Notes: generated by a model not told the origin, from the sequence alone. DNA of 32,000 nt from Puniceicoccales bacterium (GCA_031288595.1 JAITRB010000002.1:7739-39738); one strand, 5' to 3'. Counted from the stretch's first letter, positions 8,636-31,607 are shown. Translations and numbers: made by a program.

Positions 8636-8923
8636 CTATACCAGGTCAATCGTCTCGCCTTCCCGCAGGGACACATAGGCTAGTCGTCGAGACACACTGC
8701 GGCCATAACGGCCGCGTTTGGAACGATCGCGCTTCCATTTCCCGGAGCGATTGAGCACATTCACCCGCCGTACGTGAACCTGAAATTTCTCCGCCACGGC
8801 TTTGGATATCTCAAAGGAAGAGGTATGCGGATAGACCTCGAAAGTGTACTGTCCCTTGGCCGTTAGCGCCGTTGCCTTTTCGGTCATCCAGAGACCCTTC
8901 AAAACTCTTTCCGGAAAACTCAT
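8636..8923 (-). CDS. rplW: 50S ribosomal protein L23
   Basis: The ORF-track entry (to 8986) runs into rplD. The ATG at 8923-8921 forms an ATGA overlap with the rplD stop and gives a 95-aa protein MSFPERVLKGLWMTEKAT...FEV...KAVAEKFQVHV..VNVLN, which is L23-like. Confidence 0.9.
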   Translation of the reverse strand: MSFPERVLKGLWMTEKATALTAKGQYTFEVYPHTSSFEISKAVAEKFQVHVRRVNVLNRSGKWKRDRSKRGRYGRSVSRRLAYVSLREGETIDLV

Positions 8924-9577: not shown

Positions 9578-10234
9578 TCAACGCTTATCCGTCCCTTTCT
9601 TAGCCTTGCGGACGAAGACCGTCGCGCCTTTGATACCCGGGAAGCTGCCGCGAATCAGCAGGAGCTCCTCTTCTCGGATAATCCTCACGATTTTCAAATT
9701 CTGCACCGTGCGCCGCACGGCACCGTAATGTCCCGGCATCTTCTTGCCCTTGATGACATGACCCGGCCACTGGCGCTGGCCATAGGAACCACCCCGCCGG
9801 TGGAACATCGCCCCATGGGAAGCCGGACCGCCAGCGAAACCGTAGCGCTTCACCACCCCCTGGAAGCCGTGGCCCTTCGTGATGCCCACTACGTCGACCT
9901 TCTCCCCTTCTTCAAAGAGGGAAATACCGACCTCATCGCCCAGCTGGTAATGGGAAAAACATCCCCGTGTCTCGCGACAGGCGATGAGCCGCTTGCGTGG
10001 GTCGCAGCCCGCCTTTTCCAATCGGCCGACCGTGGGTCTATCATTGACTGTCCCGCTCTTCTTGCCCTGCAGGGCCAGTTGAACGGCTTCATAGCCATCC
10101 GTCTCCCGAGTCCGCTTCTGCAGTACCCGACAGGGCTGCATCTGGACGACCGTTACGGGAACTAGCTCACCTTCGGCATCGAAGATCTGCGTCATGCCGA
10201 TTTTTCTCCCCAGTGTTCCGAGTTCTTCTCTCAT
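9578..10234 (-). CDS. rplC: 50S ribosomal protein L3
   Basis: ORF track 218 aa. It contains GRKIGMTQIF...VTVV...GITKGHGFQGVVKRYGF.GGPASHG....HR..GS.G. Confidence 0.96.
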   Translation of the reverse strand: MREELGTLGRKIGMTQIFDAEGELVPVTVVQMQPCRVLQKRTRETDGYEAVQLALQGKKSGTVNDRPTVGRLEKAGCDPRKRLIACRETRGCFSHYQLGDEVGISLFEEGEKVDVVGITKGHGFQGVVKRYGFAGGPASHGAMFHRRGGSYGQRQWPGHVIKGKKMPGHYGAVRRTVQNLKIVRIIREEELLLIRGSFPGIKGATVFVRKAKKGTDKR

Positions 10235-10278
10235 GATTCCAGGAGGCAGGACGAGCCTGCATTGGAAGGTTTTTACTG

Positions 10279-10307
10279 ATTTCTGAAACGCTCGGGTCCC
10301 TTGTCAA
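10279..10307 (-). promoter_or_regulatory. Candidate sigma70-like promoter for rplC and downstream genes
   Basis: The minus strand reads TTGACA (10307-10302), a 17-nt spacer, then AGAAAT (10284-10279), about 45 nt upstream of the rplC ATG. The -35 box is perfect and the -10 box is weak. No experimental support. Confidence 0.25.
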
Positions 10308-10424
10308 GCGTTTTCCGGTATATTCCCGTATTTCGAAAAACTGCAGTAAGGGATAACCTGGGAAGTTCCAGGGAACAGGGAGAGAAGGAGTCGAGAAAAG
10401 CAAGGGCGATGGAGTGGAGATATT

Positions 10425-10520
10425 GGGCTGGCTTTGCCCGAGGGGGGAAAGAGGCCCCCCTTTTCCCCATCGGGCGGCCCGCGCAGCGGGCCCGATGCCT
10501 TCGGCATCGAAAGCCGGCCC
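10425..10520. repeat. Structured intergenic element, copy A (four-way junction: 11-bp closing stem plus three hairpins)
   Basis: Base pairing checked by hand. Closing stem 10425-10435 with 10510-10520. Arms are 10436-10475, 10476-10492 (ggcccgc-gca-gcgggcc) and 10493-10509 (cgatgcc-ttc-ggcatcg). There are no unpaired junction bases. Confidence 0.75.
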
Positions 10521-14202: not shown

Positions 14203-14303
14203 GGCGCCGCCTTGGGGCCCCATAGGGGCCCTAGGCCCGCTTCGCGGGCCGTGCGGCCTAGGGCTGGAGAGGCCCTCCGGCCCTAGGCCGCAAAGGCGGC
14301 GCC
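14203..14303. repeat. Structured intergenic element, copy B (11-bp closing stem plus three hairpins)
   Basis: Perfect 11-bp closing stem ggcgccgcctt (14203-14213) with aaggcggcgcc (14293-14303). Arms are 14215-14231 (gggcccc-ata-ggggccc), 14234-14250 (ggcccgc-ttc-gcgggcc) and 14255-14289 (ggcctagggc ... gccctaggcc with inner ggag/ctcc). Confidence 0.75.
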
Positions 14304-27061: not shown

Positions 27062-27157
27062 GCGCTGTCTTTGGCTCCCTCCGGGAGCCGCCCGCTGCGC
27101 GGGCTCCAGCCTGAAAGAGGAAGGATCCCTTCCTCTTTCAGGCTCTAAAGACAGCGC
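27062..27157. repeat. Structured intergenic element, copy C (11-bp closing stem plus three hairpins)
   Basis: Perfect closing stem gcgctgtcttt (27062-27072) with aaagacagcgc (27147-27157). Arms are 27073-27089 (ggctccc-tcc-gggagcc), 27090-27104 (gcccgc-tgc-gcgggc) and 27108-27144 (a perfect 17-bp stem agcctgaaagaggaagg-atc-ccttcctctttcaggct). Confidence 0.8.
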
Positions 27158-27878: not shown

Positions 27879-30800
27879 ATGGTGCTTATGGACATCAGGG
27901 AGTCGTTGGGACTGAAGGAAGATGGGGGACGGGTGGCAGTATCGCAGGACAGGGCGCTCATCGAATACATCCAGCTGCGGCTCCTGGCGATGGGGCAGCC
28001 TGTCGAGAAGGATGGGGACGATCCGCATTCCGTGAGCCGCATCGCGGCTCCGCTCTTCGCCAATGCCGGAGAGATACGGAGGCATCTGGCCCACTACCGC
28101 TCTCCGGTCGACCGGAGAATCACGGACTTCCTCGACCGATTTCTCGCCGAAATCCCACCGGAGGACAAGCACGAGTGGATCCCGCTCCAGAGCTTTGAGA
28201 CCGACCGCTACGGCATCGCCCGTGTCCTGGCTCTGCCCTTTAACGGCGACGAATTCCATTCGGATTACATCGATTCCTATCGCGTCGCCCAGGGGATTCT
28301 GCATAATCCTAGGGAGGACAAGCGGACGACGAAGGACGTCTTCCACATCGTCGAAGGCGGGCCCGTCGTGCCGGATGACAAGATAGCGGTGCCGAAAATC
28401 GCCTTCGCGCGGCTCCTGCGAGCAGCCTGCCATCCGCCCCAGACGCTTTTGGAATTTCCCTTTACCGCCCATCAGAAGCGCAAAGCCCATGGTTTCGTCT
28501 CCAGCTACCTGCGGCCCGTCGTCTGTCCCGAAGTTCCGGGATTCTGCCGAGGGAAGCGGATGGAGATCCGCTTCTTCGCCCCCGCTTCGCTCGTCCATTT
28601 CATCGACTGCGTCGAGAGCATCTTCGGAACGGCCGGCTCGCCCTCGCTGCCCGAGAACAATGCCGCGCTGGAGCCCGAGACCTGGACGGGGCACAGCGGT
28701 TGTATCCTCATCGCTCCACACCTGACCCAGCTCCGGAAGAAGGAGCTCGGCCTGCCGCACATCTCGGAGGCCAGCGAGCGCCAGAAGCGCGATGGCATGT
28801 GTTGGGCGGACGAGCAGGAGCGCTACCACGACGGTCGGCCCTTCAAGCTCATGGCCCGTACGCTGGAAGGCGTCATTGTCTCCCTCATCGCCGACAGCTA
28901 CAACGGCTATGGCAAAAAGGAGATCAAGACCCAGCTCAGCTATTCCGCCAACCTCTACGGCCAATGTGAGGAGGAGCATTCCGGCGGTACCTTGGCCTTC
29001 GCTGCCTACGATCTCGGCGACGAGTTCTGTTTGAAGAAAATAGAAGAGACTTCGCATACCCTGGCCGATGTTCTGAAGACCCAGGCCGACAGCGTCATGC
29101 CCCAGGCCGAGGGCTACGCCATTGACCGCCGCTATCCGGACATCTTCTATGTGCCGGAGGACGCGAATTTCACGCTGCAGCCGCTGGAAGTCTGCTGGAA
29201 GCAGGGCGGGCAGGAACAATCCCTTCCGCTGGAACCGGACAAGAGCTACCTGTTGCCCTCGGGCTATCGGGTCGAGTTGCTGGCCCCGACAGCGGGGAGC
29301 GACGAGTGCTGGCGCCTGATCGGTACCCGGGGGGATTGCGTCTTCTGCCACAAGCCCTCTACCGTTTCCGGCGGCGGGAAGTCAGAGATGGCAAGCCCCC
29401 TCACGGGCAATATCTCCCGCGGTACGGTGCTGAGCGAAGACCTGGAGGAAGATTTTCGGCAACTGCAGGGCATTCTGCGCCACGATCTCTCCCATCGCTA
29501 CCGCCGACCGGAGAAAGAAGAACGGCCGATTCTGGACTCTCGCCGCTCGCTGGGCTCGGTGATCAAGATATTCCACCCACAGCCGGATTATACAGAGGAG
29601 CACAAGCGCTGGGTCGCGTCGATCCCTCCCCACATCAAAGATCTCCTCTTCGTCCTGAAGGCCTATTACAAGCCTGCCTGGGGAGAGGATTGGCCGCGGC
29701 ACTTCTCGGTCGACTGGATCAACGGCCATTCGGGCCATGCCCTCAAATACCTGGGGAACCGGCTCGTCGCCCGCTACCTGCGGGTCGGGTTCACGGACCA
29801 GCATACCGGTCGGCTCTTCACCCTACGGCAGGACTTTTATCCGGCCTGCAAGTGGCAGATGGAAGACGACATCACCGCCTCCATCCTCGTGCCGGCAGGG
29901 AGATTGGCTGGCTTCAACGCCGAGGGGCACCCATCCCTCAAGTGTGTCAGCAATGGGGAATACCGTCTCTACCAACGGCCGGACGAGGCCATCATTCCGG
30001 GCAATGACCCCAAGGCGGAACTCCTCATGACCCTGCCTGAGACCTTTTGCTGCAACCTGCACCCCATCACGAAGACAGAGGCCAGGGGTATGCTGGCCGA
30101 CCGCATCGCCTTTTCCCGCTACAGCGAAGCGATGCAGCGCTTCCTGAAGAACTTCGCCGAGCGGAGCGACGGCCCCCGTTTCGCCGCATGTCCTTCCGTC
30201 CGGCGCCACATGCCCAATGGCTCCCTCAGCACGAATCCGCGCTACCTGGAGGATCGGGAAGACCTGACCCAGCCGCGCAAGGCCTATCTCCTGGAGCAGG
30301 CGACCCGCCTCGCCAGACGATTACCGGAAGACAGGCCAGTGTCCTACGCCGTCCAGGCCATCATCTCCGGCCGCCGCAACAACCCACCGGAGGAGAACAT
30401 CCCCCCGCTGTCCGTCCACAACCCGCTCCACTACCTGGAACTGCCGGAGCTCTTCATGGAGTATGCCTCCAACGCGACCGGCAAATCGCCCTCCACCACC
30501 GGCAGCGGACTGGAAGGGGCCATGACCAAGCGGCCCTTCAACGGCCTGAGCACGGTCACTGACCTCAATAATGCCCTGACCAGTTTCCTTCTGAGCGGCT
30601 ACCAGGGCTTCATCTCCTCGGCCAGTTACCTCGGACCACGGTATGCCATCGGTCACGACATCAGCTACCTCATCCCCGAGCTCTGGTGCCGCCTGTCCGC
30701 CCAGGAACGCGACGCGAACTTCCTCATCGCCCATGGCTACCTGGAGCCCTGCCGCGACTTCCAGCACCGGGGGCAGTGCGTCGAGGCCAGTCGTCTGGGC

Positions 30801-31607
30801 TATCGCATCACCGATAGCTTCGTCAAGACCTTCCTGGGCCGCATCGTGTCGAGCCCAGAAACGCTCTTCTGCGATGAGATGCTTCGGCCAGAGCTTCAGG
30901 ACTTGGATCTCTTCGCCAGGAGCATGGCGAATATCGTCGACGCCCAGCGCCGCGCGGCCGAGATCTTTTTTCACGACGGCTCCATCGAGGGCGCCTGTCC
31001 GCCGCTCCGAGCACTTCTGGAAATCATGGCCTACGGCGAAGCCAATGGCCTGCGGCGCTCTGCTCCGGAATTCCGCCAGATGTTTGAACCCCAGGCCCTG
31101 CGCTCCCAAGACTGGTACCAGCAGCGCCTTGAGGCCTTTCGCCATCAGCAGATTCAGCACTGGGAGCGCTGTCGCAGGGAGATGCAGGCCCTTCGCGCCT
31201 CTACGGGGGCGGCACCGGACGGCCATGGCTTTTCCATTCCGAGTCCCGGCGCAAACAGAACTGCTGAACCTTCCAGTTTCCCCCTTCAGATATCGGCATC
31301 TCCCGCAGCGTCCGGCTCTTCGGCAAGACACTCCGGAGCAGGGACTTCCGGAATAGCGGCTTCCGCCGTTCCCCATTCCCCTGGAGATCAAAGCTCAAGA
31401 TCGGCTTTCCCAAGCTCCGCTTCCCAAGGGAAAGATTCCCTGCCGAGGAATCCTGTCCCGAACTTCTCCTCCCCATTTCCGGTCGATCCACTGCGTCTGG
31501 ACGAGCGCATAGCCCACGCCGAGCAGCAGCTCGCTACCCTGCATTCTCAGGCCTTCTTTTCCTCTCTCCAGGGTTGCCTAGGCCTAGATCCCTATGTCGC
31601 CGCATGA
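27879..31607 (+). CDS. Large protein of uncertain function (1242 aa); possible PPi-type phosphoenolpyruvate carboxykinase-like enzyme with an S/P/A-rich C-terminal tail
   Basis: Longest ORF outside rpoBC, with protein-like composition (W, H, Y, C, F throughout). The alternative start ATG 27888 has AGGA 8 nt upstream. PEPCK-like motifs occur in the canonical order: KRTTKDVFHIV (aa 148-158), YNGYGKKE (341-348), EEEHSGG (364-370), SGGGKSE (497-503), VLSED (517-521). The family call comes from motif recall only. Confidence 0.6.
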   Translation: MVLMDIRESLGLKEDGGRVAVSQDRALIEYIQLRLLAMGQPVEKDGDDPHSVSRIAAPLFANAGEIRRHLAHYRSPVDRRITDFLDRFLAEIPPEDKHEWIPLQSFETDRYGIARVLALPFNGDEFHSDYIDSYRVAQGILHNPREDKRTTKDVFHIVEGGPVVPDDKIAVPKIAFARLLRAACHPPQTLLEFPFTAHQKRKAHGFVSSYLRPVVCPEVPGFCRGKRMEIRFFAPASLVHFIDCVESIFGTAGSPSLPENNAALEPETWTGHSGCILIAPHLTQLRKKELGLPHISEASERQKRDGMCWADEQERYHDGRPFKLMARTLEGVIVSLIADSYNGYGKKEIKTQLSYSANLYGQCEEEHSGGTLAFAAYDLGDEFCLKKIEETSHTLADVLKTQADSVMPQAEGYAIDRRYPDIFYVPEDANFTLQPLEVCWKQGGQEQSLPLEPDKSYLLPSGYRVELLAPTAGSDECWRLIGTRGDCVFCHKPSTVSGGGKSEMASPLTGNISRGTVLSEDLEEDFRQLQGILRHDLSHRYRRPEKEERPILDSRRSLGSVIKIFHPQPDYTEEHKRWVASIPPHIKDLLFVLKAYYKPAWGEDWPRHFSVDWINGHSGHALKYLGNRLVARYLRVGFTDQHTGRLFTLRQDFYPACKWQMEDDITASILVPAGRLAGFNAEGHPSLKCVSNGEYRLYQRPDEAIIPGNDPKAELLMTLPETFCCNLHPITKTEARGMLADRIAFSRYSEAMQRFLKNFAERSDGPRFAACPSVRRHMPNGSLSTNPRYLEDREDLTQPRKAYLLEQATRLARRLPEDRPVSYAVQAIISGRRNNPPEENIPPLSVHNPLHYLELPELFMEYASNATGKSPSTTGSGLEGAMTKRPFNGLSTVTDLNNALTSFLLSGYQGFISSASYLGPRYAIGHDISYLIPELWCRLSAQERDANFLIAHGYLEPCRDFQHRGQCVEASRLGYRITDSFVKTFLGRIVSSPETLFCDEMLRPELQDLDLFARSMANIVDAQRRAAEIFFHDGSIEGACPPLRALLEIMAYGEANGLRRSAPEFRQMFEPQALRSQDWYQQRLEAFRHQQIQHWERCRREMQALRASTGAAPDGHGFSIPSPGANRTAEPSSFPLQISASPAASGSSARHSGAGTSGIAASAVPHSPGDQSSRSAFPSSASQGKDSLPRNPVPNFSSPFPVDPLRLDERIAHAEQQLATLHSQAFFSSLQGCLGLDPYVAA

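Follow-up and report, generated by a model that had tools for sequence, protein, structure and literature searches.

A previously undescribed family of four-way-junction DNA repeats in Puniceicoccales

What kind of element occupies the spacer between rpsJ and rplC in a Puniceicoccales bacterium, where 96 nucleotides can fold into a four-way junction, and why do two further elements of the same plan lie within the same 32,000-nt stretch of DNA (referred to here as the window; GCA_031288595.1, JAITRB010000002.1:7739-39738)? A preliminary description, made from the sequence alone, had treated these elements (copies A, B, and C) as three special copies associated with the ribosomal supercluster, sharing one plan of arms in which pairing is kept while most stem sequences change. 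Based on the analyses reported here, we conclude that they belong to a previously undescribed, lineage-specific DNA repeat family of a clade within the Puniceicoccales (Verrucomicrobiota).

The sequences read from the window at the three sites match those given in the preliminary description, and the sequence of copy A agrees with the anatomy claimed for it (Table 1). RNAfold returned a closing stem and three hairpins, with all junction bases paired, for both strands of every copy. The folding energies of the two strands were -73.8 and -67.8 kcal/mol for copy A (z-scores of -6.4 and -4.6 against 200 dinucleotide shuffles), -95.6 and -89.6 kcal/mol for copy B (-8.7 and -8.5), and -72.7 and -73.3 kcal/mol for copy C (-11.1 and -9.4). 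Shuffled sequences, which had been named beforehand as a control, never reached the native energies (0 of 200 for every copy and strand), and the fully paired junctions claimed for the three sites are thus confirmed. The same core was retained when DNA energy parameters and 90-nt flanks were used. The G-rich left flank of copy A pairs weakly with its C-rich right flank. All three copies share the plan of arms that had been proposed, with one correction: the short arm of copy B has 8 bp, including a G:T pair, and not 7 bp. The suggestion that copy A is inverted relative to the other two was also correct, since the order short-middle-long is read on the minus strand in copy A and on the plus strand in copies B and C; the covariance model R1 (described below) matched copy A on the minus strand (75.7 bits, E = 2e-13) and copies B (59.1 bits, E = 7e-10) and C (71.3 bits, E = 2e-12) on the plus strand. 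The window holds one copy each of three subfamilies, which we have designated A-type, B-type, and C-type. Close C-type kin of copy C are present in the Puniceicoccales MAG Pcl387_bin38 (L098).

Table 1. Positions of the repeat copies and of a neighboring motif in the window, with the sequences that distinguish the subfamilies
Feature	Position	Strand	Description
Copy A	10425..10520	minus	A-type subfamily; element orientation short-middle-long
Copy A closing stem	10425-10435 / 10510-10520		gggctggcttt / aaagccggccc; 10 Watson-Crick pairs and one T:G
Copy A arms (plus-strand coordinates)	long 10436-10475; middle 10476-10492; short 10493-10509
Copy B	14203..14303	plus	B-type subfamily; antisense to its neighbors rpoC and rpsL
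Copy B closing stem and arms	stem 14203-14213 / 14293-14303; short 14214-14232; long 14252-14292
Copy B middle arm	14234-14250		GGCCCGC-TTC-GCGGGCC
Copy C	27062..27157	plus	C-type subfamily
Copy C closing stem and arms	stem 27062-27072 / 27147-27157; short 27073-27089; long 27108-27144
Copy C middle arm	27090-27104		GCCCGC-TGC-GCGGGC
Promoter-like motif	10279..10307	minus	TTGACA-N17-AGAAAT; upstream of rplC and outside the repeat; copy A lies upstream of the motif
A-type			GGCYGGCTTT with short arm CGATKCC
B-type			CCGCCTT(T) with short arm GRGCCC
C-type			GCTGTCTTT with short arm GGMTYCC

A seed pattern (CTTT-N30-60-GCCCGCGNAGCGGGC-N17-23-AAG) run over a genome collection gave at least 114 loci, each of which was then folded. 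Among the matches listed, true four-way copies came only from three termite-gut Puniceicoccales MAGs (JAIRRP01, JAITIW01, and JAITKE01); the family may extend to taxa other than these. The covariance model R1, built from 35 copies found outside the window, was run on 232 kb of sequence from the window, its relatives, and the three MAGs and detected 69 copies at E < 1e-6; additional copies, whose absence the preliminary description had named as a refuting result, thus do exist. Twenty-eight MAG copies without a match to the seed pattern were found in 196 kb (approximately one per 7 kb), and the window has three copies in 32 kb (one per 10.7 kb); the resulting density of approximately one copy per 7 to 10 kb of sampled sequence has an upward bias, because the sampled MAG loci were picked for containing a copy. 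These copies are interspersed in either orientation and in every intergenic context, and the rpsJ-rplC site itself is empty in three relatives, findings that do not support the proposed tie of three special copies to the ribosomal supercluster. No copies were detected by R1 in viral contigs or in 561 kb around rpsJ of 80 other bacteria, loci that came from a metagenome S10 scan in which the best match was 64% identical and that serve, therefore, as a negative control only. BLAST searches against plasmids and phages gave no matches.

At the gathering thresholds of Rfam 15, the window contained four tRNAs and nothing else, and at E < 10 the three spacers gave miRNA-like hairpin noise of 10 to 21 bits, against thresholds of 35 to 200. 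The earlier statement that the element belongs to no known class thus stands with respect to Rfam, but the family is best filed with the REP/BIME/MITE-type repeats, as a new and unusually elaborate form. In the searchable literature, outside which most subscription journals lie, we found no earlier description of the four-way architecture. The host lineage, which comprises termite-gut and related Puniceicoccales, has been poorly studied. Among named relatives, a Puniceicoccales MAG has the L3 protein closest to that of the window (78% identity), and proteins from Opitutales and Coraliomargarita come next (55 to 59%).

Units of the family are 85 to 115 nt long. The closing stem has 11 to 18 bp, often with GGTTTG/CAAACC at its outer end and, in nearly all copies, with CTTT/AAAG at the junction; its center and the short arm (6 to 8 bp, with a loop of 3 to 4 nt) define the subfamilies. 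The middle arm is near-invariant (GCCCGC-NNN-GCGGGC), as is also usual in copies that were not selected by the seed pattern, and its exceptions are compensated (GCTCGC/GCGAGC, GCCCGT/ACGGGC, GCTCAC/GTGAGC, and GTCCGC/GCGGAC). Loop sequences vary freely. The long arm (12 to 22 bp) differs in sequence between copies and retains its pairing; 63 of the 69 copies have a purine-rich 5' strand in this arm (mean, 0.76), a polarity that is the same on both DNA strands because this arm is a palindrome. Indeed, since every part of the element is palindromic, either DNA strand, or its RNA copy, folds into the same junction.

In the alignment of the 69 copies, 97.7% of the cells were standard pairs, a value that is somewhat inflated because the alignment was fitted to the covariance model, and double-sided changes were seen in 27 of the 31 pairs. 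No shuffle out of 500 matched these values, and slid registers gave at most 54% pairing. A MAFFT alignment presented the same picture, with compensation in 21 of the 31 pairs. Covariation, which the preliminary description had named as a check, is consequently in favor of a real element, one in which pairing has been kept despite changes in sequence, as had been claimed. The idea of a small peptide (AAGGA...ATG in the long arm of many AT-richer copies) was dropped, because the ATG belongs to the palindrome AATGAA/TTCATT and the window copies lack it.

As a general caution for genome scans, an RNA function does not follow from strong covariation and extreme fold stability alone. In this family the evidence points to a DNA-level element and not to an RNA role, which is argued against by the occurrence of copies between genes of every arrangement, the lack of orientation bias, the lack of strand asymmetry in folding, the lack of target duplications, and the frequency of inverted pairs. 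The element strand was the more stable in 30 copies and its complement in 37 (Wilcoxon test, p = 0.71), with 52 versus 34 G:U pairs. According to crude ORF calls, the copies lay in 22 tandem, 8 convergent, and 7 divergent spacers, and those in the tandem spacers were sense in 12 cases and antisense in 10. There were also 19 apparent ORF overlaps, mostly with short (104 to 196 aa) or probably overextended ORFs in GC-rich DNA, and most of these overlaps are taken to be spurious. A scan of both strands at the three window sites revealed no U-tract after any copy, and no intrinsic terminator or sigma-70 promoter was found at the copies by consensus scanning. Identity with tRNA or tmRNA was rejected, as ARAGORN called only the four real tRNAs and the copies have 3-nt loops with no conserved loop sequence.

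The genes of the region lie on the minus strand in the order tRNA-Thr, tuf, tRNA-Trp, secE, nusG, rplKAJL, rpoBC, rpsL, rpsG, fusA, rpsJ, and rplC onward. Copy A is located inside the 362-nt rpsJ-rplC spacer (as delimited by Pfam S10 and L3 calls on the contigs of relatives), at the 3' end of an rpsL-rpsG-fusA-rpsJ unit, and its element strand is the sense strand of rpsJ and rplC. Copy B lies between rpoC and rpsL, and copy C occupies the spacer between the divergent tRNA-Thr/tuf (minus) and tRNA-Arg/tRNA-Ala (plus) genes, where it need not be transcribed at all. The places occupied by the window copies, at the ends of two operons and in a spacer between divergent tRNA units, are tolerant of insertions. 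The TTGACA-N17-AGAAAT motif upstream of rplC, which fell below the threshold of a simple sigma-70 scan, may function as a promoter, as judged from its sequence. Also preceding rplC, like the motif in all relatives, is a small hairpin, GCAGG-N5-CCTGC (window 10235-10320, minus strand; L201:9904-10000; L204:810-912). The genes rpsL-rpsG-fusA run on into rpsJ, and tuf does not lie between them. Together with the motif and the hairpin, this order suggests that the S10 operon is split after rpsJ in this clade. Farther along the window, a predicted 1,242-aa ORF on the plus strand (27879-31607; the start is as predicted), overlapped by long ORFs on the opposite strand, had no Pfam match and no exact record in the assembly collection.

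The history of sites A and B was followed in relatives that were fetched by exact-protein lookups and scanned with the covariance model with its filters off. A copy is present at site A in the window, L119 (from the same population), L001 (coding DNA 91% identical), L200, and L203, whereas the site is empty in L201, L202, and L204 (L3 78 to 80% identical), whose spacers of 97 to 103 nt still contain the promoter-like motif and the small hairpin; the motif is present in the spacer of L200 as well. In L200 (L3 88% identical), two A-type copies in direct orientation flank a Phd/YoeB toxin-antitoxin pair. The rpsJ-rplC spacer of this contig (L200:8453-10001; JGI 3300042590) measures 1.5 kb, with the copies at 8645-8739 and approximately 9633-9797; the second copy carries an extra hairpin within its middle arm, and the downstream flanks of the two are partly similar. 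The site A copy of L203 (L3 78% identical) has an expanded middle arm. Site B holds a copy in the window and in L001, L200, L201, and L203. Neither the subfamily nor the orientation changes across relatives at either site. Between orthologous copies, the core (the 5' strand of the closing stem plus the short and middle arms) has an identity of 0.77 to 1.0 in most pairs and of 0.62 to 0.67 in pairs with L203, whereas the 100-nt flanks show near-random identity and the long arm has been rewritten yet remains paired. The copies at sites A and B have thus been resident for a long time and are constrained in some way, the source of which could be selection for pairing, arm-to-arm correction, conversion from other copies, or a host function.

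Over the sampled loci, the family behaves as a repeat. Target-site duplications were absent from 64 of 68 copies, and the other four had 2-nt matches, which is the chance level. There were 11 pairs of neighbors less than 300 nt apart, 9 of them inverted. Nearly identical 100-nt copies are found in the MAG Ct408_bin121 at more than 20 loci whose flanks are unrelated; these copies have a 30-nt left extension, CGTCTCC-N10-CCGGCGG, with CGTCTCC approximately 20 nt upstream of the closing stem and not abutting a hairpin. This extension was considered as an empty target site and rejected: all 17 of its true occurrences precede a copy, and it is therefore part of the element in that subfamily. The arm next to the extension is the short one in 15 cases and the long one in 2, and the core can therefore be reversed with respect to its flanks. 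Flipped forms of the sub-hairpins were also seen, in the tip of the long arm (GAAAGCTCCCGCTTTGC versus GCAAAGCGGGAGCTTTC) and in the loop of the middle arm (TGC versus GCA). The sequence available for the neighbor search was 232 kb, with the three MAGs represented by 8-kb pieces. All-against-all BLASTP of the ORFs from 28 loci revealed no recurrent neighboring protein or transposase, with few orthologous pairs between MAGs, and at the sampled loci no transposase was bracketed by half-elements. One filled and empty orthologous pair (L086 and L110) was too divergent for alignment.

Several of these properties are shared with the REP, BIME, and REPIN elements. Like them, the present elements are high-copy-number, extragenic, GC-rich palindromes that fold on either strand; they lack target-site duplications, commonly form inverted pairs and clusters, comprise several subfamilies per genome, persist vertically at orthologous sites, and occur at operon ends, where upstream mRNA can be stabilized. 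REP, BIME, and REPIN elements are mobilized by the RAYT Y1 transposases. Unlike a REP, which is a hairpin of 20 to 40 nt, or a two-REP hairpin, the elements described here are 85 to 115 nt long, with three hairpins set in a stem of 11 to 18 bp; moreover, an unpaired GTAG or CGTC tag is lacking from the window copies and from their orthologues, and no RAYT gene was found beside the copies in the 8-kb MAG pieces. The closest published precedent that we found is that of the related Opitutus terrae, in which GTAG REPs are abundant and form hairpin dimers 1 to 2 bp apart (Di Nocera et al., PMC3733652).

Bacterial MITEs (Correia/CREE, ERIC, RUP, Nezha, and BOX) are similar in being intergenic, approximately 100 nt long, and near-identical at many loci, in having terminal inverted repeats (here the closing stem, often GGTTTG...CAAACC), and in the possibility of cotranscription into a stably folded RNA. 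They differ in that target-site duplication is missing here from nearly all copies, that no related full-length insertion sequence was found at the sampled loci, and that the interior consists of three perfect hairpins at a junction instead of one long imperfect hairpin. The inverted terminal repeats of the parvovirus AAV, which are recognized by the HUH endonuclease Rep, likewise form a branched, fully paired DNA hairpin with small palindromes inside a larger one and with internal palindromes in flipped and unflipped states; they are, however, three-way (T-shaped) structures at the ends of a linear viral genome, as opposed to four-way, chromosomal, and apparently high-copy-number ones, and they are alike in form but not in sequence. 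Integron attC sites are conserved in structure, work as a folded single strand, and have a variable, sometimes branched center, and a further point in common is the toxin-antitoxin pair between two copies in L200. In contrast to attC sites, the copies are scattered among housekeeping genes, have perfect stems with GGTTTG...CAAACC or variable termini, and show no R-box, extrahelical bases, cassette arrays, or nearby integrase.

The elements are probably a selfish or semidomesticated family of nested-palindrome repeats, noncoding, nonautonomous, and similar to REP/BIME/REPIN elements and MITEs. It can be envisioned that they are spread by an enzyme acting in trans on the folded single strand, for which the candidates would be HUH/Y1 transposases, such as those of the RAYT and IS200/IS605 types, and other recombinases with a specificity for structure. 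The middle arm and the CTTT/AAAG junction would then be the recognition and cleavage sites, and the remaining stems would be needed only as helices. An HUH/Y1-type enzyme is suggested by the lack of target duplication, the conserved tetranucleotides at the feet of the hairpins, and the presence of a single sequence-conserved arm; it is a hypothetical enzyme, because no transposase or recurrent protein adjoins the copies in the 232 kb. Transcribed copies, such as copy A, which is sense to rpsJ, could block 3' exonucleases or impede RNA polymerase in the manner of E. coli REPs, although such effects on transcripts would be a side effect and not the reason that the elements exist. Other findings also stand against this reading: no insertion event with a clean empty site was seen among the compared loci, and copies A and B have kept their subfamily and orientation over a deep divergence (L3 identity of 78%), with a core far more conserved than the flanks. 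This conservation would also fit with a host function or with continual gene conversion among copies. More tentatively, and with considerable doubt on our part, the junction itself may be the substrate of a dedicated enzyme, either a single-strand transposase with a specificity for structure or a recombinase that recognizes junctions, which would read the invariant middle arm and the CTTT/AAAG corner. In that case the family would represent a new, Holliday-junction-mimicking class of REPIN-like replicators, and the host would have retained some copies, such as those at the rpoBC and str-rpsJ operon ends, over millions of years as operon-boundary structures.

A host role could be pictured in which the junction, as a cruciform or as single-stranded DNA, is a domesticated site bound by a nucleoid protein, gyrase, a Holliday-junction-binding protein, or a site-specific recombinase and serves in chromosome organization or in recombination that captures cassettes, with a loose resemblance to integron attC sites. 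The constancy of copies A and B across relatives, their conserved cores, and the bracketing of the Phd/YoeB genes of L200 by two direct copies would all accord with such a role, as would the restriction of sequence conservation to the middle arm and the CTTT/AAAG ends while other stems are conserved in pairing only; moreover, E. coli REP and BIME elements bind gyrase, IHF, and Pol I (PMC2817692, PMC3733652). We nevertheless consider it unlikely, since no recombinase or integrase was found near the copies in the 232 kb, most copies lie beside genes of ordinary size and not in cassette arrays, the attC R-box consensus (RYYYAAC/GTTRRRY) is absent from the closing stems, and the occurrence of near-identical copies at unrelated loci, together with presence and absence among relatives, looks like proliferation. 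Domesticated host sites are in any case compatible with a selfish origin, and the two readings are not exclusive.

An RNA function would have to take one of two forms. If copies A and B acted in cis as terminators, insulators, processing sites, or 3' stabilizers at the ends of rpsJ and rpoC, their location at old sites at operon ends, the placing of copy A upstream of the conserved promoter-like motif of rplC, its sense orientation in all five orthologues, the extreme stability of the folds, and the lack of an ordinary intrinsic terminator at either boundary would be accounted for. The same hypothesis is argued against by copy B, which is antisense in all relatives, and by copy C, which lies between divergent tRNA promoters; by the sense and antisense counts and the folding symmetry of the family as a whole; by the three relatives that have retained the promoter-like motif at an empty site A; by the missing U-tracts; and by the finding of the element at 0 of 80 rpsJ loci in other bacteria. 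We therefore regard a cis-acting RNA as improbable. Independent genes for a small structured noncoding RNA, or for a tRNA-like or ribozyme-like RNA, would explain the strong covariation and would need no fixed orientation relative to their neighbors, but in these elements every junction nucleotide is paired, which leaves no conserved sequence in a single-stranded core, bulge, or loop, neither strand folds better than the other, flanking promoters or terminators are not conserved outside one subfamily, and the Rfam and ARAGORN searches were negative, all of which makes such genes very improbable indeed.

The preferred reading, that of a REP- or MITE-like repeat, has several implications. The elements constitute a structurally new type of bacterial palindromic repeat, distinguished by a closed four-way junction, a division into sequence-conserved and pairing-only parts, and a purine-polar long arm. 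This modular conservation predicts which parts are read by a partner protein, so that a search for the protein is directly testable. As is the case for E. coli REPs, the copies may shape the mRNA ends of the most highly expressed operons. In addition, the repeats break short-read assemblies of this clade at ribosomal marker-gene clusters: short-read contigs from the population to which the window belongs stop within copy A, and contig ends lie in or next to repeats at L002:2484, L003:2452, L004:2028, L119:1, L001:1-160, and L203:1333-1416. L001 begins with homopolymer-ridden sequence inside copy B, and the site B copy of L203 contains a run of N.

The seed pattern also matched sequences from the Acidobacteriota, Pseudanabaena, and other groups, which were rejected as family members because they share only the GCCCGC-TNC-GCGGGC hairpin and form no four-way junction on folding. 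In several phyla, this hairpin lies approximately 10 nt from a GTAG-REP-like hairpin (CCCACGGC-TTGC-GCCGTGGG-CTAC), making a two-hairpin repeat that was seen in Acidobacteriota, Planctomycetota, and Armatimonadota (L005, L022, L024, L027, L028, L043, L044, L047, L061, L077, L094, L096, L104, L111, L115, and others), with three tandem repeats in L043. Pseudanabaena (L014, L023, L030, L072, and L101) and the uncultured bacterium CAZVXA01 (L018, L037, and L091) have a long, near-perfect hairpin repeat of approximately 100 nt (TAAGTAGCTAGGC...) that is tipped with GCCCGC-TRC-GCGGGC. This repeat resembles a MITE and, its tip aside, is unrelated to the four-way family.

Three further arrangements were observed among the family members. 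At several loci (L110:7130-7420, L083:1290-1600, L021:5000-5260, and L086:1490-1680), copies are centered in a longer inverted repeat of approximately 90 nt per side (TCTCTCTTTT...CCTCTAGG / CCTAGAGG...AAAGAGAGA), which, since it recurs, may be a separate family or a larger composite element. In L010 (407-2032), near-identical A-type repeats come after each of two paralogous genes of approximately 165 aa, as if a unit of approximately 1.3 kb, made up of gene and repeat, had been duplicated in tandem. Finally, L046:3000-6260 and L059:136-3900, from different Puniceicoccales MAGs, carry an orthologous gene pair that in both MAGs has repeats, though of different subfamilies, in the spacers on its two sides, which suggests that the same spacers have been used repeatedly or that copies have been replaced.
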